DNA from: an uncultured Lachnospiraceae bacterium
Lineage (GTDB): Bacteria; Bacillota; Clostridia; Oscillospirales; CAG-272
Reading direction: 5' to 3'
Assembly (NCBI GenBank): GCA_964514555.1
Contig: CAZERM010000002.1
Coordinates: forward strand, 4,761-68,760
Length of the DNA stretch: 64,000 nt
The position numbers and the translations under genes are program-made. The notes beneath the pieces are model-generated. The model saw nothing but the letters and a program-made list of their open reading frames with translations, was not told the DNA's origin and ran no database searches. Positions 1 through 50,226 of this stretch are shown piece by piece (position 1 is the stretch's first letter; the number at the start of each line of letters is the position of its first letter).

Positions 1-119
1 AACGCGGACCGCAGCTTTTTGCTTTCGTCCGCTCGGCAACTCCCCGTCCAAACGGCACTTTACGCCCGTGTTTTTACTCTTTTGTTAAAATTTATTTCGC
101 ATTTTTATGCGATATGGTA

Positions 120-5699: not shown

Positions 5700-6788
5700 A
5701 TGGGATTTTTGCCGAAGGAACCATATAAAAAAATTTTTTGCATATTCTTTTATATCATTCTCGCCGTGCTTTGCACATACATTATTTTTAAATATGCCTT
5801 GCCGATATTATTACCCTTTGTGATATCGTTTTTTATCGCTTGCGCCGTGCGCCGCCCGTCAAATTATATCCACGAAAAAACAGGTATATGCAAAAAGTTC
5901 GTCTCTGTCTTTTTGGGCATATCCGCGCTCAGCACCTGCGCTTTTTTCGTATCAGTCTGTGCCTCAAAGCTCGTTTCGGAGCTTTATTCGTTTGCAAAAG
6001 GGATGATTGAAAACAAGGACGATATCATGGCGAGCACATCGCTCTTTTCGCAAAGGATAGACCGCTTGTTTTCGGATATATTCCCCGACGCTCACAAGTC
6101 CGCTTCCGACATTCGCCAAAGACTTACAAATCTTCTTTTCGATGCCGTCAAAAATATTGTTACCGAGATAACAACGAAAATACCCATGTTCGTCGGTCAT
6201 ATTTTTTCGGGAGTACCGAAAATAATATTTTTTATCGCGGCAATGCTCCTTTCGTGCATATATTTTTGCCTCGACCTTGAAAAGATGGAAAGCTTTGTGC
6301 GACAAAATATGACAAAAAGCTCCTTTGCCGCCTTGGCAAAAGTAAAAAGAGCCTCTTTTTCCGCGGTAGGCAAATATATTCGCGCAAATTTTATAATATT
6401 CTTGATGACTGCGGCGGAGCTTACAACGGGATTTTTGATCATCGGAGTGAAATATGCTCTGCTCATCGGTGTTGCGACGGCTTTTATAGATATCCTGCCG
6501 ATATTCGGCAGCGGCACTGTGCTGATACCTTTTGCCGTTTACGGTTTTTTGAGCGGCGACTTTCGCCTCGGAATGGGGATATTGATACTTTACGCCATCG
6601 TTACGATAGTGCGGCAGTTGAGCGAGCCGCGCATAATCGGCAAAAATCTGGGTGTGCATCCGCTCGTGTCGCTCGCCGCAGTATATGCGGGATACAGCCT
6701 TTTCGGTATATGCGGCATGATATTTTTGCCTATCATCACCGTTATAGCGAAAAACATCATCTTTCCGAGCAAAAACTCCGCTTATTAA
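5700..6788 (+). CDS. ytvI: AI-2E/YtvI-type sporulation integral membrane protein
   Basis: 362-aa polytopic membrane protein. Its layout and C-terminal motifs (LPIFGSGTVLIPF..., SEPRIIGKNLGVHPL) are typical of the AI-2E transporter / YtvI family. Confidence 0.7.
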   Translation: MGFLPKEPYKKIFCIFFYIILAVLCTYIIFKYALPILLPFVISFFIACAVRRPSNYIHEKTGICKKFVSVFLGISALSTCAFFVSVCASKLVSELYSFAKGMIENKDDIMASTSLFSQRIDRLFSDIFPDAHKSASDIRQRLTNLLFDAVKNIVTEITTKIPMFVGHIFSGVPKIIFFIAAMLLSCIYFCLDLEKMESFVRQNMTKSSFAALAKVKRASFSAVGKYIRANFIIFLMTAAELTTGFLIIGVKYALLIGVATAFIDILPIFGSGTVLIPFAVYGFLSGDFRLGMGILILYAIVTIVRQLSEPRIIGKNLGVHPLVSLAAVYAGYSLFGICGMIFLPIITVIAKNIIFPSKNSAY

Positions 6789-6798
6789 AGGAGCATCT

Positions 6799-7395
6799 AT
6801 GAAAAAAACCTCTTTTTACATCGAACCGTTTGCTCCGTTTGGGCTTTTTGTGCTCTTTTTCGTTTGCGAAAAGACCATGCGTACAGCAACGATAACATCC
6901 GTTTTTGTTCACGAGGCGGCGCACCTTATCGCCGCGCTTTTCTGCGGCGAGCGTGTACAACGCGTCCGCTTGACATCATTTGGCATATCGATCGGCTTTT
7001 CCAACCCAAAAAGTTACGGCGAAGAAGCTTTTGTGGCGATATGCGGCCCTCTGGTAAGCTTTTTGTTCGCCGCCGCAGGATATTTCGGTGGAGGAGATTT
7101 CGGCGAGCAGGTGTGCACATTTTCCGCTTTCCTGGGGCTTATAAATCTTTTCCCTTTGCCCACGTTCGATGGCTGGCGGGTGGCGCGCGCCGCTATATCC
7201 GGCTTCTTCGGTCCCGATGCGGCCGAAAGAGCCGCACACGCAATATCCATGGTTTGTCTTTTTGCCGCTTGGGTGATGTCGATATATATTTTATTCTACA
7301 GCGGAGCAAATTTTGCGTTGCTTTTGTTCTGTTCATATATTTTTGCCGTTACCGTAATAAAAAGAGATTGTATTTATAACGAGAAAATGATATAA
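6799..7395 (+). CDS. M50 family (site-2 protease / SpoIVFB-like) membrane metalloprotease
   Basis: 198 aa with an HEAAH zinc motif in a TM helix and a second NLFPLPTFDG motif. Confidence 0.7.
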   Translation: MKKTSFYIEPFAPFGLFVLFFVCEKTMRTATITSVFVHEAAHLIAALFCGERVQRVRLTSFGISIGFSNPKSYGEEAFVAICGPLVSFLFAAAGYFGGGDFGEQVCTFSAFLGLINLFPLPTFDGWRVARAAISGFFGPDAAERAAHAISMVCLFAAWVMSIYILFYSGANFALLLFCSYIFAVTVIKRDCIYNEKMI

Positions 7396-15316: not shown

Positions 15317-16858
15317 ATGAAAAAGTTTTTAAACAAGATCCTTACACGAAAAGTAATAACCGGTGCGCTCATCTTCTTTCAGATAGTCTGGTGGGTATTG
15401 CTCCTTTTCAGGGTATCAGGCTTCTTCCCACACATAAACGCTGTCTGCAGCATTATCGGTGTAATACTCGCAGTATACATCATCAGCCGTGATAACAACC
15501 CCTCATATAAGCTGGCTTGGATATTGCCGATAATGATATTCCCGCTGTTCGGCACGCTCATCTATCTGCTTTACAGCAACAAACGCCCGAGCAGATACTT
15601 GAGAAAAAAATTCAATGAATCAAAGAACGCACTCGACGACACCGTCGGCAAAAGCGAGCTTTATCAGGACGAAAACGTCATCTTGGAAATGAACAGCTAC
15701 AATACGTCGATCTCAAGATACCTCAATCATGTCGGCTACCCCGTATACGACGAAACGCAAACGGAATATTTCAAAAGCGGCGAAGAACTTTTCCCTCATC
15801 TTCTCGAGGAGCTGTCCAAAGCGGAGCGCTTTATATTCGTAGAGTATTTTATCATCCAGGAGGGCAAAGTTTGGAACTCCATGTTGGATATACTCGCGAA
15901 AAAAGCAAAAGAGGGCGTTGACGTTCGCGTTATATACGATGATGTCGGCTCCGTCAGCAAGATACCCACGGGATATAACAAAAAGCTTGAATCCTTGGGC
16001 ATAAAGACAGCTGTTTTCAATCCGTTCATTCCCTTTATCAGCGTTGTCATGAACAACCGCGACCACAGAAAGATACTCGTCATTGACGGCAACACGGCTT
16101 TCACGGGCGGCATAAACCTCGCCGATGAATATATGAACATCACTCATCCCTACGGCTATTGGAAAGATACCGCTGTTATGATGCGCGGCAAAGCGGTCTG
16201 GAGCTTTACTTATATGTTCCTGCATATGTGGAACGCGATAAACGGCACGGCAAACGCAGACACAGACTTCAACAAATATCGCCCCGAAACATTCAGCACA
16301 CCGAAATTCAACGTGGGCGGCTTCGTTCAGCCTTTTTGCGACAGTCCGCTCGATGATGAATCCGTTTCGCAGAATGTATATATCAATATGCTACATTCTG
16401 CGAAAAAGTATGTTTACATCTGCACGCCATACCTCGTTATCGATGATGAGATGAAAAATGCGCTCACATTTGCGGCAAAGCGCGGTGTCGATGTCCGCAT
16501 CATCACCCCAGGCATACCCGACAAAAAAATAGTTTATCGTTTGACAAGATCGTATTATCCGGGACTGCTCGCAAGCGGTGTCAAGATATATGAATATTCC
16601 CCCGGTTTCGTTCACGCAAAATCTTTTGTTTGCGACGATGAAACGGCGATGGTCGGCACGATAAACCTCGACTTCAGAAGTTTGTATCTCCATTTCGAAT
16701 GTGGCGTGCTTTTGACGGGTACAAATTCCGTTTTCAGCATTCGCGACGATATGGAGGCTATGTTTAATATTTGCGAGGAGATCAAAAAACCGAAAAAACG
16801 CAGTTTTCTCGGCAAAGTGTTCGATTCTATCCTTCGCACGTTTGCACCCTTGGTTTAA
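15317..16858 (+). CDS. cls: Cardiolipin synthase
   Basis: 513 aa with N-terminal TM helices and two HKD motifs (HRKILVIDG, HAKSFVCDD). Confidence 0.92.
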   Translation: MKKFLNKILTRKVITGALIFFQIVWWVLLLFRVSGFFPHINAVCSIIGVILAVYIISRDNNPSYKLAWILPIMIFPLFGTLIYLLYSNKRPSRYLRKKFNESKNALDDTVGKSELYQDENVILEMNSYNTSISRYLNHVGYPVYDETQTEYFKSGEELFPHLLEELSKAERFIFVEYFIIQEGKVWNSMLDILAKKAKEGVDVRVIYDDVGSVSKIPTGYNKKLESLGIKTAVFNPFIPFISVVMNNRDHRKILVIDGNTAFTGGINLADEYMNITHPYGYWKDTAVMMRGKAVWSFTYMFLHMWNAINGTANADTDFNKYRPETFSTPKFNVGGFVQPFCDSPLDDESVSQNVYINMLHSAKKYVYICTPYLVIDDEMKNALTFAAKRGVDVRIITPGIPDKKIVYRLTRSYYPGLLASGVKIYEYSPGFVHAKSFVCDDETAMVGTINLDFRSLYLHFECGVLLTGTNSVFSIRDDMEAMFNICEEIKKPKKRSFLGKVFDSILRTFAPLV

Positions 16859-16911: not shown

Positions 16912-16939
16912 AAAATAAAAGGGCGACCAAAGGTCGCCC
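16912..16939 (-). terminator. GGGCGACC-N3-GGTCGCCC hairpin acting as likely terminator of the his operon
   Basis: Perfect 8-bp GC-rich stem (16921-16939) followed on the minus strand by TTTTATTTT. It is the same hairpin module that opens the 243-bp repeats. Confidence 0.65.
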
Positions 16940-17015
16940 CTACGTTTTATTCATGAATTTTGGCAAAATTCATACTTTCCACTCTACAACCGATGCAAAA
17001 CGATCTTTTTGCGTA

Positions 17016-17840
17016 TTATATCTCTATGGGAACGAATTTGCCACCCTTGAGCATATATGCGTGGTCAAAGCCGCAATCTTTTGCAAGCTTTACTGCCTCG
17101 TCAAAGGCAAAGCCGAGGTGTTCCGCTTTATGCGCGTCGCTTGAGAATGTTATCTTGCCGCCCATCTCATAGAGGGAGGAGAGCAAAAGTTCGGAGGGAT
17201 ACGGTTTTGTGCGGTATCCTCTGGAGATAGCGCCCGTATTTATCTCAAATATCTTTCCTGCGGCGGAAAGGCGCTCGAGCGCAACGAGCGCAGGCATAAC
17301 ATAGCGCGGATGTGTTTCGCTGAAATACTTTTCTCCCTCGTTAAATTTGGAAACGAGGTCTATATGCGCCACGATGTCAACTTCTTCGATATCGGCAAGT
17401 TTTGCAACGGTATTGAAATATTTTTTGCAATATGCGTAAGGGTCGCCGCGAAAATATTTCTCTATCGTTTCGTTTGTCATCTCCTCGGAGCAATCGACAG
17501 CGCGTTTTTCAACGCCCGTGTCCACGTAATGGCACGCACCTATAACATAATCATATCTTTCGAGTTTTTCCACAGCGATGTTGGAAAATATATCGAATTC
17601 TGTGCCTGTGTATATTTCGAGCCTGTCGGCATATTTTTCTTTTACCTCGGCGGCGCTTGCGATATATTTTTCCGCATCATCTTTTTTCATGCAGAAAGAA
17701 TCATCGAAATCCGTAAAGCTATGCTCGGAAAAGCCGATGGAGGTGTAGCCCTGTTTTACGGCTTCTTCCGCGTACTGCTCCAATGTAGATCTGCCGTCGC
17801 TGAATAAAGAGTGCATATGAAGGTTCGATTTAAAACTCAT
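17016..17840 (-). CDS. hisK: Histidinol-phosphatase, PHP/HisJ family
   Basis: 274 aa with PHP-domain metal motifs ([16 protein letters not shown]). It is the last gene of the his operon. Confidence 0.88.
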
Positions 17841-18487: not shown

Positions 18488-18495
18488 AATATCCT

Positions 18496-18521
18496 CCTAC
18501 TTTTCTTGAAAGAAAAGTAGG
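18496..18521 (-). repeat. AT-rich perfect hairpin (CCTACTTTTCTT/AAGAAAAGTAGG) abutting the hisIE Shine-Dalgarno
   Basis: 12-nt arms. The 3' arm on the mRNA runs into GGAGG (SD is the reverse complement of 18493-18498). It resembles the terminal hairpin of the 243-bp repeats. Confidence 0.6.
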
Positions 18522-18662
18522 CAAAAGAACTTCACTCAAAAACAAGCTTCTATCCCACATTCCATTCAAGAATTTGATTTTATCTCTTTACATAAGTTTT
18601 TCATCTTGAAAGAAATGCGAGATATTAAATTCCCATTTCATCAAGAAATCTTTAAATAAGTT

Positions 18663-19421
18663 TTATATTCTTACGTTTATTCCCTCGGCGGCGAGTGTCT
18701 TTTTGAGATCGGATATCTCCACTTCGCCGAAATGGAATATAGATGCGGCAAGTCCTGCGGAGATCGTCGGAACTTTTCTGAACAATTCCGTGAAATCCTC
18801 TTTTTTGCCTGCGCCGCCCGAAGCGATGACAGGCACCTTTACAACATCGCATACGGCACTCAACATATCGATATCAAACCCGTTTTTAACGCCGTCCGTA
18901 TCGATGCTGTTTACAACTATCTCGCCTGCGCCGCGCGATACCGCGGAGCGTATCCATTCGATAGCATCTATGCCCGTATTTTCTCTGCCGCCGCGCGCGA
19001 ATACGGTATATTTTCCGTCTACAAGGGAGATATCCGCCGAAAGTACGACACACTGGCTGCCGTATCTCTTTGCCGCCTCCTCGATGATATCGGGGTTGCG
19101 GATGGCGCCCGAGTTCACGCTTACTTTATCCGCGCCGCTCGAAAGCACTCTTTCAAAATCCGCTATGGTATTTATGCCGCCGCCGACAGTGAGCGGAATA
19201 AACACCTTTTTAGCCGTTTCACGGAGTATATCGGTAAATATACCTCTGCCCTCTGCGGATGCTGTTATATCGTAAAAAACAAGCTCGTCTGCGCCGCAAT
19301 TGCTGTAATGCTCCGCAAGTGTTACGGGCGAAGAAACGTCCGAAAGTCCCTGAAATTTAACACCCTTTACAACTCTGCCGTCCTTTACGTCAAGGCACGG
19401 TATTATTCTTTTTGTTATCAT
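18663..19421 (-). CDS. hisF: Imidazole glycerol phosphate synthase, cyclase subunit
   Basis: Starts MITKRIIPCLDVKDGRVVKG at the ATG at 19421, which overlaps the hisA stop as ATGA. Confidence 0.96.
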   Translation of the reverse strand: MITKRIIPCLDVKDGRVVKGVKFQGLSDVSSPVTLAEHYSNCGADELVFYDITASAEGRGIFTDILRETAKKVFIPLTVGGGINTIADFERVLSSGADKVSVNSGAIRNPDIIEEAAKRYGSQCVVLSADISLVDGKYTVFARGGRENTGIDAIEWIRSAVSRGAGEIVVNSIDTDGVKNGFDIDMLSAVCDVVKVPVIASGGAGKKEDFTELFRKVPTISAGLAASIFHFGEVEISDLKKTLAAEGINVRI

Positions 19422-20134
19422 ATCTTTTCCGCCTTTACCGCTTCGCAAAGGTCGATATTTCCGTTATATATCGCCTTTCCGAGAATTGCACCGAACATTT
19501 TCATATTTGCAAGTTCAAAAACCTCTTCAACGGTCGTTATGCCGCCCGAAGCGATAAGGTTTACGGAGAATTTTTCCGAAAGATGCTTGTAAAGTTCCAT
19601 GTTCGTGCCCATGAGCGCGCCATCGCGCGAAACATCCGTGCAGATAACAGTGGAAACACCCATATCCTCCATCATACGGAAGAATGTGTCCGTATCCGTG
19701 CCGCTCTTTTTCGTCCAACCGTGAGTTGCTATCTCGCCGTCTTTGATATCTGCGCCGACTGCTATATGAGCGCCGTATTTTTTCGCCATATCCTCTGCAA
19801 ATGCGGGGTCTTCCGCCGCAACAGTGCCGAGTATGACACGTTCCGCACCCATTTCAAGGTAAGAATATATTCTTTTTTCGTCGCGGATACCGCCGCCGAC
19901 TTCAACGTACATCTCGCTTTTGGAGATGAGCTTTTTGATCATATCGAAATTATCCGTATTTCCCGAAAGTGCACCGTCAAGATCGACTACGTGAAGATTC
20001 TTTGCGCCCTTTTCGGCAAACGAATAAGCAACAGCCAAGGGATCTTCGCCGTATACCGTCATGTTATCGTATTCTCCGCGCAAAAGGCGAACCGCCTTGC
20101 CGCCGCGAAGGTCTATCGCAGGAAGTATTATCAT
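19418..20134 (-). CDS. hisA: ProFAR isomerase
   Basis: 238 aa, starting MIILPAIDLRGGKAVRL. Operon context supports the call. Confidence 0.95.
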   Translation of the reverse strand: MIILPAIDLRGGKAVRLLRGEYDNMTVYGEDPLAVAYSFAEKGAKNLHVVDLDGALSGNTDNFDMIKKLISKSEMYVEVGGGIRDEKRIYSYLEMGAERVILGTVAAEDPAFAEDMAKKYGAHIAVGADIKDGEIATHGWTKKSGTDTDTFFRMMEDMGVSTVICTDVSRDGALMGTNMELYKHLSEKFSVNLIASGGITTVEEVFELANMKMFGAILGKAIYNGNIDLCEAVKAEKI

Positions 20135-41866: not shown

Positions 41867-43444
41867 ATGGACGATTCAAAACAGTATATAGGCGACACCT
41901 TTGACGGACGCTACAAAATAGAACGCCTTGTCGGCATCGGCGGCATGGCTTATGTTTACGAAGCGAAAGACCTAAGATACGGCAAGACCGTTGCCGTAAA
42001 ACTACTCAAAGATAAGTTTTCGGATGATTCTCGCGCGGTAAAGCGCTTTATAAACGAATCCAAATCCTTGGAGATATTGAACCACCCGAACATTGTAAAA
42101 ATATATGATATTTCCGTAAGCTCGCCGAATAAGTTTATAGTTATGGAATATATAAACGGCATCACCTTGCGAAAATACATGAACTATAAGCTTCCTCTTG
42201 AATGGACGGAAGCCTCCGACTTTGCCGAGCAGATATTGCTCGCACTCGACCACGCACACACGAAAGGTATCGTTCACCGCGATATCAAGCCGCAGAACAT
42301 CATGATAATGCAGGGCGGCGCCGTTCGCGTTACCGACTTCGGCATCGCCAAGATACCGAAATCCGAGGCTCTGACGCTCGTTGACAAAGCCATAGGCACT
42401 GTTTACTACATCTCGCCAGAGCAAGCCAGCAGCCGCAAGATCGACGCCAGAAGCGATATATATTCGCTCGGCGTAATGCTTTATGAGATGGTTACGGGAA
42501 AACTTCCCTTTACGGCGGACACGCCGATAGCGGTCATATTTAAGCATATCAACGATTCGCCGATACCACCTTCAAAGCTCAATCCCGCAATTCCGCGTGG
42601 TCTGGAGCAGATAATCCTCTGCGCCATGGAAAAAAATCCGCAGAACCGTTATCAAAGCGCGGCACAGATGCTCCGCCACCTTCGCCGTTTGAGAATGGAC
42701 CCTGCCACTGTATTTTTACAGCAAAGACCCGTGCCCAAAACGAGCACGAGCGAAACAACGATAAGACGCACTTCTCGCCCTCATCGCGATACATCGGAAT
42801 TTGATTTTTCGATACATGAGCACGCAGAGCAAGCGCGCAAACAATCAGCTCCCGTTCAACAGCCTCGTGTACAAGTTCAGCCTCAACGTCAGCAGGCTCA
42901 ACCGCAACGTCAACAGGCTCAACCGCAACGTCAACAGGCTCAACCGCAACGTCAACAGGCTCAGCCGCAGCGTCAGCAGGCTCAACCTCAGCATCAGCAA
43001 ATTCAGCCTCAACGTCAGCAGACTCAACCGCAACGTCAACAGGCTCAGCCGCAAAGACAGCAAGCTCAACAGCGCTCACACGGAGACCGGATATACAATC
43101 GCTCTCCCAATGTCGGCATACAAATGCCGGGTCAGCGCTCCAACCCCTACATAAACAGAGCGCCGTCGGCGCAGAACAGACAAGCGCCGAAAAACGGAGG
43201 CGCACAGAGCCAAAGAACGACTCGCACCACCCAAAACAGCAGACAAAGACGAATGCAGGGCATAGATATTTCGGCATATCTGCCGTTTGTGATAATCATA
43301 TTGCTCATCGCCATCGTCTGCACGATCTTAATATCCGTTGCAATATCTAACGTAAGCGAAGCGGCAACGGTGCCTTTCCAATATATCGGAGAGGATATAC
43401 AAGCAAAAACGCTTCTGCTATATTTAAAGCAGGTTATTTTATGA
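41867..43444 (+). CDS. prkC: Hanks-type Ser/Thr protein kinase (PrkC/PknB-like) lacking PASTA domains
   Basis: 525 aa with kinase motifs (VAVKLL, HRDIKPQN, DFGIA, SPEQ), a Q-rich heptad repeat, a single TM helix and an extracytoplasmic tail of only about 30 aa. Confidence 0.9.
   Translation: MDDSKQYIGDTFDGRYKIERLVGIGGMAYVYEAKDLRYGKTVAVKLLKDKFSDDSRAVKRFINESKSLEILNHPNIVKIYDISVSSPNKFIVMEYINGITLRKYMNYKLPLEWTEASDFAEQILLALDHAHTKGIVHRDIKPQNIMIMQGGAVRVTDFGIAKIPKSEALTLVDKAIGTVYYISPEQASSRKIDARSDIYSLGVMLYEMVTGKLPFTADTPIAVIFKHINDSPIPPSKLNPAIPRGLEQIILCAMEKNPQNRYQSAAQMLRHLRRLRMDPATVFLQQRPVPKTSTSETTIRRTSRPHRDTSEFDFSIHEHAEQARKQSAPVQQPRVQVQPQRQQAQPQRQQAQPQRQQAQPQRQQAQPQRQQAQPQHQQIQPQRQQTQPQRQQAQPQRQQAQQRSHGDRIYNRSPNVGIQMPGQRSNPYINRAPSAQNRQAPKNGGAQSQRTTRTTQNSRQRRMQGIDISAYLPFVIIILLIAIVCTILISVAISNVSEAATVPFQYIGEDIQAKTLLLYLKQVIL
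42857..43066 (+). repeat. In-frame 21-bp tandem repeat (9 good units plus 1 degenerate) encoding (QPQRQQA)n inside prkC
   Basis: The unit CAACCGCAACGTCAACAGGCT repeats head to tail, and three consecutive units are identical. Confidence 0.95.
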
Positions 43445-44361
43445 CAGAAAAAAACGATCTTTACGGTACAATAATTTCTTGTGTCGGCGGACTTTATACA
43501 GTCTGCCGCGCAGACGGCGAAAAGGTTGCTGCGCGTGCGCGCGGTTCTTTCCGCTATGAAAAAAATTCGCCCTTGGCAGGCGACAATGTTCTTCTCCACA
43601 AAGAGAACGATACATTTGCCATAAACAAAATATACGAGCGCAAAAATTCGCTCGTTCGTCCGCCCATTGCAAATCTTGATACGCTTTTTGTGTCATTTGC
43701 GCCGACAGAGCCTGCGCCTAACCTTTTGTGCGTAGACAAGCTCTTGTCCGTTGCGACGGCGGCAAATATCCACTCCGTAATCGTTATAACGAAAAGCGAT
43801 CTTTCCGACGATATGGCGGAAAAATACGCCGATATCTACAGAAAAGCAGGTTATCCTGTGTTCATCACATCTTCAAGGGAACACAAGGGACTTGACGAGC
43901 TTAAAAAGCTCATATCAGAAAGCGGTTGCGGCAAGATATTTGCTTTTGCAGGTGCTTCGGGTATAGGAAAATCGTCCATCATGAACGCGCTTTTCCCCGA
44001 TCTTTCCCTTAAAACAGGCGCTCTTTCCGAAAAGATAAGCCGCGGCAAGCAGACAACGCGCACTGTAGAACTTTTCCCCATAACTCTTGAAAACGGCAAC
44101 GAAGTTTTTGTTGCCGACACACCGGGATTTTCCGTTTTGGAATTTTCCGCTATCCCAAATTTCAAAAAAGAAGATCTCGCCTCAACTTTCCCCGAATTTG
44201 AAAGATTCAAATGTGATTGCCGTTGGCGCGATTGCACGCACACAAAAGACGGCGACTGCGGCATAATCAATGCCGTTAAGAGCGGCGATATCGCCAAGGA
44301 ACGCCACGAAAACTTCCTTTTGATGTATGATGAGCTTGCAAAGATACCAAGCTGGAAATAA
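43441..44361 (+). CDS. rsgA: Ribosome small-subunit-dependent GTPase A
   Basis: 306 aa with circularly permuted G motifs (ITKSDL, GASGIGKSS) and a C-terminal zinc motif (CDCRWRDCTHTKDGDC). Confidence 0.93.
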   Translation: MTEKNDLYGTIISCVGGLYTVCRADGEKVAARARGSFRYEKNSPLAGDNVLLHKENDTFAINKIYERKNSLVRPPIANLDTLFVSFAPTEPAPNLLCVDKLLSVATAANIHSVIVITKSDLSDDMAEKYADIYRKAGYPVFITSSREHKGLDELKKLISESGCGKIFAFAGASGIGKSSIMNALFPDLSLKTGALSEKISRGKQTTRTVELFPITLENGNEVFVADTPGFSVLEFSAIPNFKKEDLASTFPEFERFKCDCRWRDCTHTKDGDCGIINAVKSGDIAKERHENFLLMYDELAKIPSWK

Positions 44362-44367
44362 CACAAA

Positions 44368-44403
44368 ACAGACCGCAGAAAAATGCGGTCTGTTTATTTT
44401 TTT
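44368..44403 (+). terminator. Rho-independent terminator of rsgA
   Basis: Stem ACAGACCGCA/TGCGGTCTGT followed by TTATTTTTTT. Confidence 0.85.
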
Positions 44404-44419
44404 GAGCGATATGAACACA

Positions 44420-44662
44420 CGTAGGGGCGACCTGTGGTCGCCCGTTTTTCCAATCGCAACAATTTTATCATTGATAGAGTGCGAATTGTTGCTAAAAGCC
44501 AAAATTTTTGATACGTGCTCTGCGGCGCGGTTCCGAGAGTAGCGCCTCTCGGGGAGCCGCATTCGATACAGCTATCATTTTCGATGCGATTCGCTTAAGT
44601 GGGTAAAGCGAAAGGCTTTTTTATCTTTTTGCTACTTTTTCTTTAAATAAGAAAAAGTTGAG
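44420..44662. repeat. 243-bp hairpin-rich intergenic repeat, copy A
   Basis: Aligns end to end with 47350-47592, at about 85% identity by eye. It opens with GTAGGGGCGACC-N3-GGTCGCCC and ends with the CTTTTTCTT-TAAAT-AAGAAAAAG hairpin. Confidence 0.9.
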
Positions 44663-44696
44663 AAGAATCTTCTTCTTGTTTAAATAAAAGCTTAAT

Positions 44697-45443
44697 TTAT
44701 TTCTTCTGTGCAAAGAGCCAATCCATAAGACCCTCTGTGTCGTATGCAGGGCCCCAACATTCATGACCCACGCCGGGGAAATATGTTGCTTTCATTTTTG
44801 TGCCGCCTGCCGCTTTGATGGCTGCTTCCATGTCCTTTGTGCCCTGTGCGGGAACCGTGCTGTCGCTCTCGCCATGGAAAGCCCAAATGCCGATATCAAC
44901 GAGTTTATCCGCCATAGAGGGGATGCCTGAACCGCAAAGAGGGATTGCCGCCGCGAACACTTCGGGTCTGCGAGTGATAAGCTCCCATGTGCCGTAGCCG
45001 CCCATGGATATGCCTGCCGCATAAACACGAGTAATATCTACTTTGCCGCTGTCGAGGAATTTTTGGAGCAATTCCATAGCCGCCGCAAGTCCGACAGTGG
45101 GCTTTTCCGTAAGCTCACGAGAGCCTGTGTTCCATTTATGCTCAACGGGGATCCATTCATATTTTACATTGCAGGGGCACTGCGGAGCAACAACGATGCA
45201 ATCGTCTTTTTCCACAACCATGTTGAGAAGTTTGTTTTCTTTTTTCAAAACTCTTATCTGAAGCTCGTTTTCCGTGCCGCATTCGCCATGACCGTGCAAG
45301 AAAAACAACATGGGATATTTTGCGCTGTCTGCCGCATTGTAATTGCTCGGCAAATAAACTCTGTAAGGAAGCGTGAATCTTTCGCCTGTTTCGGCGTCCG
45401 TATATTCATATGCTTCTTTCAACATTATATCGATATCAACCAT
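44697..45443 (-). CDS. Alpha/beta-hydrolase esterase (PHB-depolymerase/CE1-like), no signal peptide
   Basis: 248 aa counted from ATG 45443 (AAGGAG SD). Motifs PMLFFLHGHGECG, nucleophile elbow GISMGGYG and FHGESD. The longer track ORF would overlap the mgtE promoter. Confidence 0.8.
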   Translation of the reverse strand: MVDIDIMLKEAYEYTDAETGERFTLPYRVYLPSNYNAADSAKYPMLFFLHGHGECGTENELQIRVLKKENKLLNMVVEKDDCIVVAPQCPCNVKYEWIPVEHKWNTGSRELTEKPTVGLAAAMELLQKFLDSGKVDITRVYAAGISMGGYGTWELITRRPEVFAAAIPLCGSGIPSMADKLVDIGIWAFHGESDSTVPAQGTKDMEAAIKAAGGTKMKATYFPGVGHECWGPAYDTEGLMDWLFAQKK

Positions 45444-45584
45444 TTTTAAATCTCCTTGATGAATATAAAAATATCGGAAATGACCGATGTATATTTTTAT
45501 ATTGTATACTTCGCAATATATTTTGTCAAGCGCTTTTCTTGCCGCAGATAACACCTTAAAAAGCGCAAAAAAACAAGCCAAGAG

Positions 45585-45613
45585 TTGACAAATCTTAAAA
45601 ATTGGTATAAAAT
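45585..45613 (+). promoter_or_regulatory. Predicted mgtE promoter (TTGACA-N17-TAAAAT)
   Basis: Hexamers at 45585-45590 and 45608-45613. This implies a leader of about 220 nt. Confidence 0.5.
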
Positions 45614-45837
45614 AAAAGGACGCGGACGACCCTCCGCATTATAAATACACGCAAAAAAGAGGTGAAAAAGATGGATTCCGGTAACGGGAATGGCAGTACA
45701 CCTGCCCGAAGTATAAAAGCTATTCTGTCTTTTTTGCCCCGAAAGATAAAATAGCATAACTTCGAGCAATTCGTTCTGCCTCTTAAAATTTAATATAGGA
45801 GGAGAAGCGAATATTTTTTATTCGCTTAAGTATCACA

Positions 45838-47217
45838 ATGGACGAGATCATTGAATTTCACGAAAAGATCAAACAGCTCATTGAAGAAAAACATTTCAAA
45901 GAACTTAAAACATTGCTCGCAGAAGAAAACGCGATAGATATCGCAGAAGCGCTTAACGGACTTTCCGAAAAAGAATTGCTCGTTGCTTTCCGTTTGCTCG
46001 ACAAAGACCAAGCGGCGGATGCATTCGTTGCCATGGAGCACGATGAGCAGGAGACTATCATCCGCGCATTTACGGATAAAGAGCTCCGCGAGGTAGTCGA
46101 TGAATTGAGCGTGGATGATGCCGTTGACATCATCGGAGAGATGCCTGCAAACGTCGTTGCACGTATCTTACGCAACGCGGACAGAGAAACTCGCCGCGAT
46201 ATAAACAGCCTCTTGCTCTATCACGAAGATACGGCAGGAAGCATGATGACCCCCGAATATGTTTCTTTGCGCCCCGATATGACGGTAGACGAAGCTTTTG
46301 ATAAGATAAGGCTCGTAGGACTCGACAAAGAAACTATCTACACTTGCTATGTTACGGAAAATCGTCATCTTATCGGTGTCGTTTCCGTTCGCTCTTTGCT
46401 TATCGCCGCAAAAACGGATAAGATAAGAAATATTATGCACGAAAACGTCATCTATGTAAAAACGACGGATGACAAAGAATTTGTTGCAGGACAGATCAAA
46501 AAATACGGCTTTCTTGCTTTGCCTGTTGTCGATGCGGAAGAAAAACTCGTTGGCATCGTTACGATCGATGACGCTATCGACGTAATCGAAGAAGAAGCAA
46601 CGGAAGATATCCAGAAGATGGCGGCTATCTTGCCCGACGAACACCAGCAGACATATATCCGCTCAGGTGTATTTAAAATATGGAAGCAGAGAATACCGTG
46701 GCTTTTGTTTTTGATGATATCCGCAACATTTACTTCAAAAATAATCGGCAAATTTGAAAGTGCGCTTTCCGCGTGCATCGTTTTAAGTTCGTTTATCCCT
46801 ATGATAATGGATACAGGCGGTAACGCAGGCGGTCAAACGTCCGTAACTATCATACGTGCGCTTTCGCTCGGCGAAGTTCGCTTGCGCGATGTTTTCCACA
46901 TAGTGTGGAAAGAATTTCGCGTTTCGTTGATCTGCGCGCTCACCGTAGCCCCTGTTGCATTTTTGAAAGTGTGGTTTATAGATGGTCTTTACAATGAACC
47001 TGACGGCATAGTTATATCGCTTGTAATAGCGGCAACACTCTTTATAACGATATGCGTTGCAAAGCTTGTGGGTTGCCTTTTGCCTCTCGCGGCGAAAGCT
47101 GTTCACCTTGACCCCGCCGTTATGGCAAGCCCCTTTATCACGACGATAGTCGATGCTATCGCGCTCGTGGTATACTTCACAATAGCATCAAATTTCGTGC
47201 CTGCATTGGCATTATAA
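45838..47217 (+). CDS. mgtE: Magnesium transporter MgtE
   Basis: 459 aa with the MgtE N-domain, tandem CBS domains and a C-terminal 5-TM domain (PMIMDTGGNAGGQ). Confidence 0.95.
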   Translation: MDEIIEFHEKIKQLIEEKHFKELKTLLAEENAIDIAEALNGLSEKELLVAFRLLDKDQAADAFVAMEHDEQETIIRAFTDKELREVVDELSVDDAVDIIGEMPANVVARILRNADRETRRDINSLLLYHEDTAGSMMTPEYVSLRPDMTVDEAFDKIRLVGLDKETIYTCYVTENRHLIGVVSVRSLLIAAKTDKIRNIMHENVIYVKTTDDKEFVAGQIKKYGFLALPVVDAEEKLVGIVTIDDAIDVIEEEATEDIQKMAAILPDEHQQTYIRSGVFKIWKQRIPWLLFLMISATFTSKIIGKFESALSACIVLSSFIPMIMDTGGNAGGQTSVTIIRALSLGEVRLRDVFHIVWKEFRVSLICALTVAPVAFLKVWFIDGLYNEPDGIVISLVIAATLFITICVAKLVGCLLPLAAKAVHLDPAVMASPFITTIVDAIALVVYFTIASNFVPALAL

Positions 47218-47223
47218 AAAGTT

Positions 47224-47260
47224 CTCCGACAGAGCCAAAAAACTCTGTCGGAGATTTTTG
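47224..47260 (+). terminator. Rho-independent terminator of mgtE
   Basis: Stem CTCCGACAGAG/CTCTGTCGGAG followed by a T-run. Confidence 0.85.
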
Positions 47261-47282
47261 TTTTTCTTATAAATAAGAAAAA
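47261..47282. repeat. Solo copy of the AT-rich terminal hairpin (TTTTTCTTAT-AA-ATAAGAAAAA)
   Basis: 22-bp palindrome resembling 44635-44657 and 47565-47587. It lies 68 bp to the left of repeat copy B. Confidence 0.7.
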
Positions 47283-47349
47283 GTGAATTATAGCAAAGTA
47301 ACACCTCCTCTGTCAGCCTTTGGCTGCCACATTCATTTGTATTACCATC

Positions 47350-47592
47350 CGTAGGGGCGACCTGCGGTCGCCCGTGTCCCATCGCAATAATTTTTTCATT
47401 GATAGGATGCGAATCGTTGCAAAAAGCTATCAGCTAAAAGCCAAAACTTTCGACTCATGCCATGCGGCGTGGTTCCGAGCGTGGAGCCGCATTTGATACA
47501 GCCATCATTTTAGATGTGATTCGCCTAAACGAGTAAAGCGAAGGGCTTTTTTATCTTTTTGCAACTTTTTCTTTAAATAAGAAAAAGTTGAG
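47350..47592. repeat. 243-bp hairpin-rich intergenic repeat, copy B
   Basis: Same orientation as copy A, offset by exactly 2930 bp at both ends. It has a 14-nt insertion (47421-47434) and a 12-nt shorter central stem. Confidence 0.9.
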
Positions 47593-47626
47593 TGAACCTT
47601 TTGCATACCAAGAAAAGCTAATTTAA

Positions 47627-47661
47627 AAACAAAAAAGCAGATGAGCTTTTGCTCATCTGCT
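47627..47661 (-). terminator. Rho-independent terminator of the LamG-esterase gene
   Basis: Stem AGCAGATGAGC/GCTCATCTGCT with a TTTT loop and an A-run on plus (a T-run on minus). Confidence 0.85.
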
Positions 47662-47677
47662 TTAATTTTACTGTTTA

Positions 47678-50002
47678 TCAGTCAGCTTTTGTCTGCTGAA
47701 GGAGCCACTGTGCGGGTGTCTGACCTGCTTCGTTTACTGTTGTGTAAGCAGGAGTCCAAGCGTTGTGGTTTACGCCTTCAAGAACTGTAAATGTCATCTT
47801 TGTGCCGCCTGCTGCTTTGATAGCATCAAACATAGCTTTTGTACCGGAAATGTTAACTGTGGGGTCAGCATCGCCGTGGAAAGCCCAGATGTCAATGTTT
47901 ACGAGGTCTTTAGCAGAACCTGTGATACCTGCGCCGCATACGGGAACGCAAGCCGCAAATGTTTCGGGTCTGCGAGCCATAAGTTCCCAGATACCGTAGC
48001 CGCCCATAGAGATACCTGCGCCGTAAACGCGGTCTGTATCTACTTTGTCGCTTGCGAGGAATGTATCAAGGAGAGCGGAAGCCGCACGAAGACCGAGTGT
48101 TGCGTTTTCGGGAAGTTCTGCGCGTTCGTAGATGCCTTTTGCCCAAGGTTCGCCTTCGATCCATTCTTTTGTTACGCCGTCATCGTCCACGCACTGGGGA
48201 GCAACGATGATGCAGTTGTCCATAGCCGCAACATCTTCGAGGAGGATGTTGGAGGAACCGAGAACTTTGATCTGCTGGTCGTTATCTGTGCCGCATTCTC
48301 CGTTGCCGTGAAGGAAGAAGAGGATGGGGTATTTTTTAGAGCTTGTTGCATCGTAATCTGTGGGGTAGTAAACTCTGTAAGGGAGTTCGAGTGTTTCGCC
48401 TGTTGTCGCGTCTGTGTATGTGTAGATCTGCTTTTCAGCCGCATAGATAGTGCCTGCTACTACGTCTGCTTCGTCCATAGCATAGTTGTATACTGTGAAG
48501 CCGTCGATAGCGCCGTAGAACTGCTGGATATCTTTCTTTTCGTCGCCGGAATCGGATACTTTACCACCAATCCAAATGGGAAGTGTGGAAACGTATTCCT
48601 GAACGGGTTTTGTGCCGCCGAGGATACCATCGCAATATGTTGTGATAGTACCTGTTGTAGCATCCTGAATGATTGTGAGTGTATGCCATTCTGTGTCTGT
48701 AACATTGCCGTCGGAGTCTTTAGTTATGCCGCTGTAGATAGCTTTGTTACCGCCCAAACCGCCCCAATGAGCGTTTGTGCTGTTGAACCATACGCCGTAC
48801 CAACCGTTGCCGCTGCTGCCCTTCTGGAACAAGCAAGGCCAAGAGTTGCTGGAGAAGAGGTTAGCTGCTGCTTTGTATGTGATCTGGATCGTGAAGCTCT
48901 GTGTCTTCTTGAAGTTGAGAAGGTCGCTGTCTGCGATAGTGAGGTACTGACCGAATGTATCGAACAAAACTGCGTTGCCGTCTTTACCTTCTACGAGGGA
49001 AACGTCGCCGGAGATAACAGCTTCCATACCGGAAACTTTATCAATGAATTTACCATCTTTGATCTCGTTGAAATCGAAATCTGCAACTGCTTTTTCTTCG
49101 TCGGGAACTTCAACTTCGATACCTGCGATCGTCTGGTAATCGAGAGCGCAAGAGTAGATCTTGAATTCGTCTACGCCGCCGATGAACTGCTGCATAGCGG
49201 AAAGATCACCTGTGATACCGATAAAGAGATCGGCAGTGGAAGTTGTGTCAAATTTTTTGGATGTTGTTGCGCCGGGAACACCGTCAACATATGTGGAAAC
49301 AAGGCCTTTTGTGCCGTCGTAAACAGCAACGTAGTGGTGCCATGTTTTGTCTACTGTAAGGCTGGATGTAGCAAGTGTGTTGCTGATAGAGCCGCCTTCT
49401 TCACCATAGCCTGCCTGCAAGCCTTTGCCCTTCTGGAGCCACAAGCCGTAGTAGCTTGTCTTGTTCGGGAAGCCTTTTGCCAATACGCAAGGCCAAGAGT
49501 CGTTAGCGAAAGAATTATCGTCGAGTTTATACCAAAAATCGATAGTAAAGCTATCATTTGCAGAGAAATTGAGGTCCGCAGCATCTGCAACCTGGAGGTA
49601 ATCGCCTACGTTGCCGAAGTAAGCAGCGTCGCCTTCGATACCGTCGATAATATCAACAGCGCCTACAACGCTTGCGTCATGACCTTTGCCTGTGATATCT
49701 GTAACGATATTAGCATCAAGATCCCATTCGTCAAAGTCGAAGTGCATAACGAGGAAATCGTTATAATCGATCTTGCCGTCATTTGTTGTTGTGCTTTCTT
49801 CTGTTGTTGTGGAGCCTGCTGTTGTGCCGACCGTAGCAGCTGTGGAACCTGCTGTTGTTCCTGTTGTGCCGGAAGTTGAATCAACTACAGCATTGCCTGT
49901 TGTGGATGCAGAACCCGTTGTGTTTTCAGTACCGCCGTTGCAGGAAGCAAGGGACAATACCATCATAACGAGTGCTGTCGAAAGAGCAATCAGTTTTTTC
50001 AT
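47678..50002 (-). CDS. Surface lipoprotein: 2x LamG (concanavalin-A-like lectin) domains + C-terminal esterase
   Basis: 774 aa counted from ATG 50002 (MKKLIALSTALVMMVLSLASC lipobox). It has a T/S-rich linker and two LamG_3-like modules (..WHHYVAVYDG..VDEFKIY.. and ..WHTLTIIQD..IDGFTVY..). The C-terminal esterase is about 60% identical to the 248-aa esterase (GISMGGYG). Confidence 0.8.
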   Translation of the reverse strand: MKKLIALSTALVMMVLSLASCNGGTENTTGSASTTGNAVVDSTSGTTGTTAGSTAATVGTTAGSTTTEESTTTNDGKIDYNDFLVMHFDFDEWDLDANIVTDITGKGHDASVVGAVDIIDGIEGDAAYFGNVGDYLQVADAADLNFSANDSFTIDFWYKLDDNSFANDSWPCVLAKGFPNKTSYYGLWLQKGKGLQAGYGEEGGSISNTLATSSLTVDKTWHHYVAVYDGTKGLVSTYVDGVPGATTSKKFDTTSTADLFIGITGDLSAMQQFIGGVDEFKIYSCALDYQTIAGIEVEVPDEEKAVADFDFNEIKDGKFIDKVSGMEAVISGDVSLVEGKDGNAVLFDTFGQYLTIADSDLLNFKKTQSFTIQITYKAAANLFSSNSWPCLFQKGSSGNGWYGVWFNSTNAHWGGLGGNKAIYSGITKDSDGNVTDTEWHTLTIIQDATTGTITTYCDGILGGTKPVQEYVSTLPIWIGGKVSDSGDEKKDIQQFYGAIDGFTVYNYAMDEADVVAGTIYAAEKQIYTYTDATTGETLELPYRVYYPTDYDATSSKKYPILFFLHGNGECGTDNDQQIKVLGSSNILLEDVAAMDNCIIVAPQCVDDDGVTKEWIEGEPWAKGIYERAELPENATLGLRAASALLDTFLASDKVDTDRVYGAGISMGGYGIWELMARRPETFAACVPVCGAGITGSAKDLVNIDIWAFHGDADPTVNISGTKAMFDAIKAAGGTKMTFTVLEGVNHNAWTPAYTTVNEAGQTPAQWLLQQTKAD

Positions 50003-50189
50003 GATAATCAATCCTCTCGAAAAATTGTAAATATTTTTGGGCATAGATAACCCTGTTAGTTGTAATTCTATTTTATACTTATTAACCGTTTTTGTCAATA
50101 GTTTTTCGACTTTTATTGAACAATTTCTATGAAAATCATGGGTATTTGCCACAAAAAGCCTTAAAGACGTTTTATTGCTAAAATTATAT

Positions 50190-50226
50190 AAAATAAAAAG
50201 GATATTGCCGAAAGGCAATATCCTTT
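50190..50226 (-). terminator. Rho-independent terminator of the 450-aa lipoprotein gene
   Basis: Stem AAGGATATTGCC/GGCAATATCCTT with a GAAA loop and a T-run on the minus strand. Confidence 0.85.

Follow-up and report, generated by a model that had tools for sequence, protein, structure and literature searches.

The 64-kb window analysed here (64,000 nt of contig CAZERM010000002.1, from an uncultured Lachnospiraceae bacterium) carries two co-oriented copies of a hairpin-rich intergenic sequence, copy A at 44420-44662 (+) and copy B at 47350-47592 (+). Each copy is 243 nt long and the two are offset by 2930 nt at both ends, as an earlier reading of the letters without database searches (the sequence-only reading) had described. 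We favour, with a probability of roughly 0.55, the view that A and B represent a mosaic repeat, non-coding and non-autonomous, similar to repetitive extragenic palindromic sequences and bacterial interspersed mosaic elements (REP/BIME), BOX repeats or miniature inverted-repeat transposable elements (MITEs), which the lineage acquired and duplicated after it split from its nearest sampled relatives. Among the three candidates offered by the sequence-only reading, a MITE/REP-like element fits best, as parts of the repeat recur in the window, in relatives and in metagenomes, in both orientations and with presence/absence polymorphism. Each copy is a mosaic of a 5' GTAG-headed hairpin, a body and a 3' module, three parts that would have separate histories. 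It would have entered the lineage and then undergone one local copying, and its ends may be kept by selection as functional structures. The 3' module may, more tentatively, be able to fold into a triple helix.

The blastn alignment of the two copies spans 257 columns and comprises 202 identities and 28 gap columns (E = 2e-62); this corresponds to about 88% identity over aligned bases, close to the 85% that had been estimated by eye. Homology breaks off sharply at either end, and the sequences linking each copy to its flanking genes are unrelated between A and B. Along the element, the ends are near-identical and the body is about 80% identical. The last 51 nt hold a single difference (44633 T versus 47563 A), in agreement with the near-identical 3' end noted earlier, and this near-identity reflects the conservation of the 3' module across species (94-98% identity to the related locus L124; loci from other genomes and contigs carry L numbers here). 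The uneven conservation between A and B parallels that seen between species and not a single age for the whole element. The copies also differ by three indels (2, 14 and 12 nt), and because these break the frames A and B share no reading frame, which bears out the statement that the repeat has no conserved open reading frame (ORF). In the same-species contigs L001-L003, which are 99.8% identical to window positions 43024-47562 over 4.5 kb, copy A is 100% or 99.6% identical, and polymorphism clusters in the repeats, with six of the nine strain differences falling inside copies A and B. Two of these differences (44460 C>T and 47530 A>G) turn one copy into the other's base, which suggests gene conversion, or assembly noise at the repeat. 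The same-species Logan contigs break at copy B, as is expected at a repeat: L002 and L003 end at most 8 nt from its start, and L001 ends inside it at 47562.

The 3' module of copy A (44615-44661, +) consists of a tract at 44623-44631 (ATCTTTTTG), a 5' arm at 44632-44643 (CTACTTTTTCTT), the loop TAAAT and a purine arm at 44649-44660 (AAGAAAAAGTTG). The module of copy B (47545-47591, +) has its tract at 47553-47561, its 5' arm at 47562-47573 and its purine arm at 47579-47590, and the closing hairpin of the sequence-only reading, CTTTTTCTT-TAAAT-AAGAAAAAG, is present in both copies. R1, a covariance model of the module, gives exactly three significant sites in the window: copy A (51.3 bits, E = 4e-8), copy B (53.7 bits, E = 1e-8) and a T4 variant, TTCTTTTG-CCTAC-TTTTCTT-TCA-AGAAAAGTAGG, at 18496-18537 (-) (39.6 bits, E = 7e-6). 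The third module lies in sense orientation inside the his operon, in the hisF-hisIE gap (18488-18662), where it overlaps the Shine-Dalgarno sequence of hisIE (GTAGGAGGATATTATG) through its 3' arm (GTAGG), and it is 95% identical to the right-end module of an insert in L128. Two lesser traces stand near the copies. A solo remnant of the module hairpin, TTTTTCTTATAAATAAGAAAAAG, occurs at 47261-47283 (+), where it directly follows the terminator of mgtE and stops 66 nt short of copy B (repeat family D8; 16.9 bits), and a degenerate hairpin-like remnant, CTTCTTCTTGTTTAAATAAAAG, to the right of copy A at 44669-44689 is 90% identical over 21 nt to an L124 module hairpin.

Neighbourhoods of relatives were fetched with MgtE as anchor and comprise L125, L126 and L127 (86% identical), L124 (82%) and L128 (78%). 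L124 carries modules at 15970-16016 (-), 16254-16300 (+), 19319-19365 (-) and 19830-19876 (+), and L128 carries them at 6451-6499 (-) and 6805-6846 (+); their identity to those of A and B ranges from 81 to 98%, with best values of 94-98%. These modules form outward-facing inverted pairs that enclose inserts of 330-560 nt, which occupy the rsmB-rlmN gap of both L124 and L128 and the priA-def gap of L124; the corresponding gaps of the window are empty, at 5 and 29 nt, respectively. A further case is L190, in which ecfT is flanked by two inverted units, and the orthologous loci L375, L377 and L378 (EcfT 86-89% identical) are without the module. Presence or absence at orthologous sites is seen for A and B against the relatives, for the rsmB-rlmN and priA-def gaps, and for the ecfT locus of L190.

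The module is also widespread beyond these relatives. In a metagenome scan with TCTTTTTGYNACTTTTTCTTT, 46 of the 123 matches listed extend through ACTTTTTCTTT-loop-AAAGAAAAAGT, the full module hairpin, whose loop measures 3-16 nt in these matches. All full-hairpin matches listed are intergenic and occur in either orientation; by our own count about 20 point the same way as the upstream gene and 19 the opposite way. Many of these listed matches sit at contig ends, which is the signature of a multi-copy repeat. The hosts are rumen and gut Bacillota metagenomes (Clostridia and Selenomonadaceae), together with viral contigs, where the full module was found in 6 of 49 matches. The largest subfamily is that of rumen Selenomonadaceae, whose core unit of 105-115 nt comprises a GC hairpin P1 (loop CAWGGAC), a hairpin P2 (loop ACAGGAUG or GUGAU) and then the module; P1 and P2 contain 12 pairs with compensatory double changes (RNAalifold, canonical family). 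Units of this subfamily occur in L190 (9700-9840 and 10735-10915), L142, L207, L235, L239, L248 and others. Their loops CAWGGAC and ACAGGAUG resemble the A(N)GGA sites bound by CsrA. A role as a CsrA sponge was considered and set aside, as A(N)GGA loops belong to the Selenomonadaceae family and none is present in copies A and B.

The immediate setting of A and B had suggested a connection with esterases. The gene order in the window is RsgA (43441-44361, +), copy A, a 294-aa alpha/beta-hydrolase (the small esterase; 44697-45581, -), MgtE (45838-47217, +), copy B, and an 846-aa LamG-plus-esterase protein (the large esterase; 47678-50218, -), and the distance from the esterase stop codon to the element downstream of it is 35 nt for copy A and 86 nt for copy B. 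The two esterases, which had been put at about 60% amino-acid identity, are 50% identical by measurement. L125 has an ortholog of the small esterase (82% amino-acid identity), yet neither its small nor its large esterase is followed by an A/B element; plain terminators stand there, and blastn gave no match. More generally, copies A and B are absent from the corresponding loci of L124, L125 and L128. Since the L125 esterases lack the elements, these were gained after the origin of the paralogs and after the split from the nearest sampled relative. The contrast between paralogs at 50% (protein) and elements at about 88% (DNA), together with the absence from L125, supports the earlier suggestion of recent spread as opposed to a passive remnant of the esterase duplication. 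The companion argument, that the element is better conserved than the adjacent coding DNA and hence selected, is invalid, because elements that post-date the paralogs cannot be meaningfully compared with them. A specific tie to esterases likewise finds no support, given the L125 ortholog and large esterase that end without an element, and the proposed targeting of terminator regions does not hold, as family members also lie within the operons rsmB-rlmN, priA-def, ecfA-ecfT-truA and hisF-hisIE.

The 5' part of the element is a hairpin of a different kind. Copy A opens with a GTAG-headed GC hairpin at 44421-44443 (+) (stem 44425-32/44436-43, followed by GTTTTT), which has 0 mismatches to the pattern and a terminator-like score, and copy B has its counterpart at 47351-47373 (+), a pattern match with the loop TGC. 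The opening hairpin GTAGGGGCGACC-N3-GGTCGCCC that had been recognised by eye is thus found in both. A third such hairpin stands solo at 16921-16943 (-), just past the stop codon of a PHP-domain gene (17016-17840). All three sites read GTAG followed by GGGCGACC-N3-GGTCGCCC, and it is by a palindrome headed with GTAG that REP sequences are recognised. Terminator-like T-run tails follow the 5' hairpin of copy A (GTTTTTCC) and the solo hairpin (TTTTATTTT), and the tail of the copy B hairpin, GTGTCCC, is without a T-run. A hairpin with these 20 specified bases was found at no fewer than 120 loci from many phyla (L004-L123, with one genome scanned per species), including Acidobacteriota, Binatia, Myxococcota, Chloroflexota, Oscillospiraceae, Ruminococcus and others among the loci listed; REP sequences are not usually identical across phyla in this way. 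The similarity of A and B to these loci is confined to their first 25-30 nt. Many of the listed loci have the hairpin as inverted doublets 20-50 nt apart, a REPIN-like arrangement, and the 64-kb window has three singlets. In AT-rich Bacillota the hairpin is often followed by GTTTT, and there it may often double as an intrinsic terminator.

The body between these two ends is the rapidly diverging part of the element. Most loci match just the 3' part, and matches longer than the last 45-70 nt were obtained from L124 only, whose inserts are distantly related to the body (L124 16170-15970 against columns 40-256 of the A/B alignment, E = 3e-11, nhmmer). Folding of copy A predicts a second hairpin, GCAACAATT ... 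AATTGTTGC, at 44456-44492 (+), and its counterpart in copy B, GCAATAATT ... AATCGTTGC at 47384-47420 (+), retains the pairing through G.U wobble changes relative to copy A. Both copies also contain what look like remnants of an inverted 3' module. The 13-nt remnant in copy A (GTTGCTAAAAGCC, 44488-44500, +) is complementary to the GGCTTTT...GCTAC segment of the 3' module, and the 27-nt remnant in copy B (GTTGCAAAAAGCTATCAGCTAAAAGCC, 47416-47442, +) matches the left-end module of the L124 elements. The latter holds the stretch that had been taken for a 14-nt insertion in B (47421-34). Because B keeps 27 nt of the inverted module and A keeps 13, this difference, which falls in a decayed inverted module, is more readily explained by a loss from A, and the ancestral element probably carried the module at both ends, as do the L124 and L128 elements. 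The central hairpin of copy A, GGTTCCGAGAG / CTCTCGGGGAGCC at 44529-44558 (+), appears in both the fold and the consensus; by alignment and consensus, only its base, GGTTCC-GAGCGT-GGAGCC, is left in copy B (47471-47488, +). The trimming of this stem in B was correctly described, since the 12-nt difference takes exactly the tip of GGTTCCGAGAG/CTCTCGGGGAGCC and leaves GGTTCC/GGAGCC.

A feature of the closing module that the sequence-only reading did not mention is its mirror-repeat architecture. The canonical module runs in the order S1a (4-7 nt), T3-4 C T5 G, YNAC, T5 C T3, a loop starting with S1b, A3 G A5, and GTNR. Its hairpin has 13 bp in canonical copies (a 12-13-bp U/A hairpin overall), and the basal YNAC/GTNR pairs co-vary (CTAC/GTAG, CAAC/GTTG, TTAC/GTAA, TCAC/GTGA, GATAC/GTATG and GCTTAC/GTAAG). 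The U-rich tract upstream is the mirror image of the pyrimidine arm and is hence the parallel Hoogsteen complement of the purine arm, such that T.A-T triples are predicted throughout and a C+.G-C triple at the single C. The structural meaning known for mirror repeats is triplex formation; we know of no mechanism by which they would be templated, and of no meaning that they would have for twofold-symmetric protein binding. The three tracts lie on one strand, which points to a single-stranded fold rather than H-DNA. In addition, the bases just 5' of the U-rich tract can pair with the start of the hairpin loop (S1). At least four S1 pairs are present in 47% of distinct copies compared with 23% in a re-pairing control, and the two sides of S1 co-vary (ACGCCC/GGGCGT, GGTCC/GGACC, AGCCCC/GGGGCT, GCGTC/GACGC, GCACA/TGTGC and AGACCC/GGGTCT). 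S1 is predicted from these sequences to make an H-type pseudoknot in about half of the distinct copies.

We tentatively propose from this architecture that the 47-nt module is a bacterial and phage triple-helix motif, with 7-9 consecutive U.A-U/C+.G-C triples on a 13-bp hairpin and, in canonical copies, within an H-type pseudoknot, that is carried by dispersed repeats of rumen and gut Bacillota and their viruses. It would then be a prokaryotic counterpart of the triple helices formed by an element for nuclear expression (ENE) plus an A-rich tract, or of telomerase-type triple helices. Although we put this proposal at less than even odds, the co-variation of the three strands argues for it. The mirror relation is kept in the main class and in at least eight independent sequence variants. 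The tract T4-C-T-C-T3 accompanies the pyrimidine arm C-T3-C-T-C-T4 in L176, T4-C-T4 accompanies T4-C-T4 in L183, and T3-C-T4 accompanies C-T4-C-T3 in L016, L160, L244 and the window module at 18496. Similarly, L240 pairs the tract T5-C-T2-C-T4 with the arm C-T4-C-T2-C-T3, L210 has CCTTTTCT with TCTTTTCC, L111 has CTTTCTTT with TTTCTTTC, L065 has TTCTTT with CCTTTCTT, and L234 has T4-C-T5 with C-T5-C-T5. As the first search pattern had a fixed tract, an unbiased retest was made in which the patterns used to search viral contigs specified the hairpin alone, and only then was the sequence upstream of each hairpin examined. The T4 tract TTTCTTTTG lies just upstream of 14 of 31 T4-class hairpins and the T5 tract upstream of none of the 31, and the T5 tract TTTCTTTTTG lies upstream of 6 of 11 T5-class hairpins and the T4 tract upstream of none of the 11 (Fisher's exact test, ~3e-5, with copies within a family being related). 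A second hairpin family, CCTTCCCC/GGGGAAGG-like with the flanks TGGCA... and CAAG..., recurs in several loci of Oscillospiraceae and Clostridia (L026, L033, L042, L062, L065, L113 and others); it lacks a mirror tract upstream and was used as a negative control.

Three other interpretations of the module were considered and dropped. A double-stranded protein operator is at odds with mirror repeats that lack twofold symmetry and with loops that range in length from 3 to 16 nt, an integron attC site would call for a longer hairpin, and a pair of DNA-uptake sequences leaves the third tract unexplained. A description of a bacterial triple-helix repeat of this kind was not found in full-text literature searches, and the module is apparently undescribed before. 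In the accessible part of its text, a 2026 review of RNA triple helices covers those of eukaryotic long non-coding RNAs, viral and transposon RNAs, and telomerase, and the prokaryotic triplexes it names there are short ones, in riboswitches and group II introns only (PMC13541005).

Several observations weigh against the mosaic repeat and its triple-helical module. With respect to mobility, only two full copies are present in the 64-kb window, no target-site duplication flanks A or B (...GAACACA|A|AAGAATC... and ...TACCATC|B|TGAACCT...), and a search for further copies in protein space, made with the peptide of a spurious ORF that starts inside copy A, found none. A gene for a REP-associated tyrosine transposase (RAYT) was not seen beside the hairpin doublets of L027 and L045, two loci at which ORFs were judged by eye; the flanking ORFs are cytidine/adenosine deaminase-like in L027, and sigma factor-like plus a protein of no assigned kind in L045. 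No transposase or TnpB gene stands beside the 10 family members checked, whose neighbours are housekeeping genes or have no Pfam match. With respect to the fold, the triple helix is deduced from sequence symmetry alone. Copies A and B themselves have no S1 partner, as their loop is TAAAT, and their tract, TTATCTTTTTG, is interrupted and fits at 7-8 of 9 positions, so that the triplex in A and B would be shorter than the canonical one. The third strand, with one linker base, must span back over a 4-bp stem extension, which would be geometrically plausible. Moreover, a direct-repeat model, in which shared CT4-5 tracts vie for A4-5G in alternative pairings, also fits the T4/T5 co-variation. It would, however, have the runs of the tract follow the order of those in the arm, whereas the order is reversed in every informative variant, and it leaves the reversal in the multi-C variants unexplained. 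Finally, the stems of the canonical (Selenomonadaceae) units are almost purely Watson-Crick, with G.U at 7 of 379 pairs on the + strand and 17 of 395 on the - strand. Taken with the apparently random orientation relative to genes, this means that a DNA-level or selfish element fits at least as well as a host RNA.

If the module does form a triple helix, what might it do? When the + strand is single-stranded, the module would fold into its U/A hairpin with the upstream tract in the major groove, forming T/U.A-T/U and C+.G-C triples, about 7 in A and B and 9 in canonical copies, and in the latter S1 would turn the fold into an H-type pseudoknot. A compact, exonuclease-resistant and polymerase-obstructing fold may be the selected feature. 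One possibility is that the fold is the structure that a mobilising enzyme recognises on single-stranded DNA. An alternative is that it acts on read-through RNA between convergent genes as a 3' cap, roadblock or insulator. The read-through RNA would come from RsgA for copy A and from mgtE for copy B, both of which are co-oriented with the elements, with terminators in between. Roles at the level of RNA and of single-stranded DNA are about equally likely.

Another explanation, which we consider improbable, is that A and B are two genes, or paralogous versions, of a discrete trans-acting structured small RNA (sRNA) transcribed from the + strand. The predicted folding of A and B on this strand is indeed stronger than that of shuffled sequences (z = -4.2 and -3.9), and every substitution in an A/B stem keeps the + strand pairing through wobble. 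The A/B consensus has 65 pairs on the + strand, with 9 one-sided wobble-preserving changes and 0 broken, and 51 pairs with 3 such changes on the - strand; this strand comparison is weak support, as there are two sequences and the method favours pairing. The - strand, however, folds about as well (z = -5.4 and -4.7). Individual stems fared unevenly. The long-range AAAAGCC/GGCTTTT pairing of the sequence-only reading is found in single-sequence folds and is lost in the two-sequence consensus, which favours GCGAATYG/YGATTCGC, and the GCGG/CCGC clamp is absent, in the form given there, from the consensus, in which the 5' GCGGCG segment pairs elsewhere. The conserved 3' module could stabilise the 3' end of such an RNA, and the elements lie between terminators and outside the coding unit. 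Both copies had been placed between terminators; this is true of copy B, which has bidirectional intrinsic terminators on its left, after mgtE (47223-47254), and on its right, in the gap to the large esterase (47634-47663), but copy A has one on its left side only, in the gap to RsgA (44366-44395; all from a terminator scan). On the other hand, a promoter scan of the + strand found no promoter-like site ahead of either copy, the unit opens with a terminator-like hairpin, and neither a terminator nor a T-run follows the module. The element is absent at the corresponding loci of three related species, and the family is dispersed, multi-copy, apparently random in orientation and often within operons. 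Nor does it match an Rfam family. Rfam 15 at the gathering threshold gave a tetrahydrofolate (THF) riboswitch at 1-83 as its sole match in the window, a search of 44350-47700 at E up to 10 gave chance-level matches only, and nothing relevant was found in 19 family loci plus L190.

It is also possible, with similarly little weight, that A and B are passive leftovers of a segmental duplication or rearrangement at this locus; one ancestral intergenic segment would have been copied during a reshuffling of the small esterase-mgtE segment, and it would itself be neither mobile nor functional. In L124, L125 and L128, mgtE is convergent with RsgA, and mgtE in the window is inverted relative to RsgA by comparison with these three. 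Upstream of mgtE in L124 and L125-L127, where the contigs reach that far, are esterase or LamG-domain genes. Copies A and B stand exactly at the two borders of the rearranged small esterase-mgtE segment, and the scarcity of full copies in the window and the two strain polymorphisms that convert one copy to the other's base would fit such an origin. Recombination between module-bearing units is plausible, as mgtE in L128 is bracketed by inward-facing T4 modules, at 7-49 (+) and 1844-1886 (-), which could invert it. However, a simple inversion does not leave direct repeats, the spacers between copies and genes are unrelated with sharp homology boundaries, and all three building blocks occur independently elsewhere in the window and in other genomes. 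The gradient from near-identical ends to a body of about 80% identity also tracks conservation between species rather than a uniform age. Since the copies bracket the rearranged segment, service as recombination substrates is a plausible side effect of the mosaic repeat that we favour. The looping-out of the esterase-mgtE cassette that the sequence-only reading had suggested would likewise involve A and B, which do enclose a segment that differs in gene order from three relatives.

We regard it as rather remote that the elements are miniature derivatives of IS200/IS605 insertion sequences (palindrome-associated transposable elements, PATEs) or stand-alone TnpB-like omega/reRNA guide scaffolds that use the flank of the module as guide. 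Such an origin would agree with the lack of a target-site duplication, with hairpins at the ends, with a conserved and sharp 3' boundary that abuts variable flanking DNA, and with the presence of the module on viral contigs; pseudoknot-with-triplex cores, moreover, are a feature of TnpB and Cas12 guide RNAs. Against it, no tnpA or tnpB-like gene lies beside the 10 family members checked, no transposase family was found among the ten window proteins that were scanned against Pfam, and none of the IS605-orfB RNA families was matched in Rfam. The two ends of an IS200/IS605 element resemble each other, but A and B end in hairpins that are unrelated, and the modules of L124 and L128 are inverted at the two ends, unlike in IS200/IS605. 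Among the loci examined, in a search that was not exhaustive, no autonomous parent element with the same ends and a transposase was found. Comparison of copy A with plasmid and phage collections by blastn yielded nothing relevant, and a body-specific 20-mer gave one chance match in viral contigs, in a giant-virus coding region.

Least probable of all is that the elements are cis-acting 3' untranslated region elements of the esterase mRNAs (- strand) that control stability or termination: they do lie just downstream of the esterase stop codons, and the small-esterase transcript should run through copy A because the first - strand terminator (44395-44366) lies beyond it, but a strong - strand terminator (47663-47634, 13 pairs and then a T-run) precedes copy B, the orthologous small esterase and the large esterase of L125 are without an element, family members flank unrelated housekeeping genes, and the module is antisense to the esterases (R1, 21-24 bits on the - strand versus 51-54 bits on the + strand for copies A and B).

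Some other features of the window were observed in passing. A near-consensus promoter-like site on the - strand (47316-47287; CTGACA, an 18-nt spacer and TG-TATAAT) lies between the mgtE terminator and copy B, and a transcript from it would be about 60 nt long and stop at the bidirectional terminator 47254-47223. The THF riboswitch aptamer at 1-83 (-) scores 60.2 bits, its 3' part being lost at the start of the window. A kinase gene (41867-43444) contains nine tandem copies of a 21-nt unit at 42814-43086 (+), with 66-85% identity to the reference unit; these fall in the C-terminal half of a PrkC-like Ser/Thr kinase and would encode a 7-residue repeat.

Even if A and B are only members of a REP/MITE-like family, the repeat marks the borders of rearrangements around mgtE and breaks short-read assemblies, and it offers a caution that conservation beside paralogous genes need not mean gene-specific regulation. 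If the triple helix is real, long U.A-U/C+.G-C helices would be extended to bacteria and their viruses, and the module would provide a small, abundant and naturally varied model, with dozens of variants in which three strands co-vary. What dispersed bacterial repeats are selected for would then become testable.

The closest parallels for the element as a whole are the REP/BIME sequences of Enterobacteria and Pseudomonas, in which REPINs are mobilised by RAYT Y1 transposases. Like these, A and B have a short, GTAG-headed, GC-rich imperfect palindrome, and the hairpin is extragenic, frequently behind a stop codon or in the gap of a convergent gene pair, and is oriented either way; inverted doublets of it, 20-50 nt apart, are found in other genomes. 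REP/BIME sequences also form mosaics with other motifs, and they have known effects on mRNA 3' ends and as recombination substrates. The differences are that the GTAG hairpin of A and B is a singlet that accounts for 25 of 243 nt, that the same 20 bases are found across many phyla whereas classical REPs are species-specific, and that no RAYT was seen and the body and 3' module have no REP/BIME counterpart. With MITE-like repeats (Correia, ERIC/IRU, pneumococcal BOX/RUP and Bacillus cereus bcr1), the element shares a non-coding length within 100-500 nt, a dispersed intergenic distribution, presence or absence in close relatives, a modular build, and predicted stable folds with compensatory changes, and the L124/L128 elements have the module as inverted terminal repeats of 45-50 nt. 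A and B differ from MITEs in that they have no terminal inverted repeats, with unrelated end hairpins and only the 13-nt and 27-nt internal remnants, and in that no target-site duplications and no parent insertion sequence with matching ends were found. In addition, a terminal repeat that is a hairpin plus a mirror tract is unlike the inverted repeats that transposases bind.

For the module, the nearest likeness is to the ENE-plus-A-tract helices of MALAT1, MEN-beta, Kaposi's sarcoma-associated herpesvirus (KSHV) PAN RNA and the transposon RNAs of plants and fungi. The strands follow the same order in cis, namely a U-rich Hoogsteen strand, a turn, a U-rich Watson-Crick strand, a linker and an A-rich strand, and a lone C+.G-C breaks the run of U.A-U triples. 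The U-rich region of canonical copies is closed by a GC stem comparable to the lower stem of the ENE, and eukaryotic ENEs are likewise associated with transposable-element transcripts. The module differs in its bacterial hosts, in an upper stem-loop shrunk to a turn of 3-4 nt, and in an A-rich strand that is internal and runs into a 4-bp stem extension instead of being a free 3' end or poly(A); also, it is known here from its sequence and not as a stabilised RNA 3' end. The canonical copies resemble, in turn, the triple-helix H-type pseudoknots of telomerase RNA (P2b-P3) and of the SAM-II and preQ1-II riboswitches, as they have S1, a U-rich loop 1, and an S2 whose 5' strand is U-rich and whose 3' strand is A-rich, with loop 1 parallel to the purine strand in the topology of major-groove U.A-U triples. 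S2 is much longer in the module, at 13 bp with up to 9 potential consecutive triples, and the module is multi-copy and dispersed, with no ligand pocket or template context and, in A and B, without S1.

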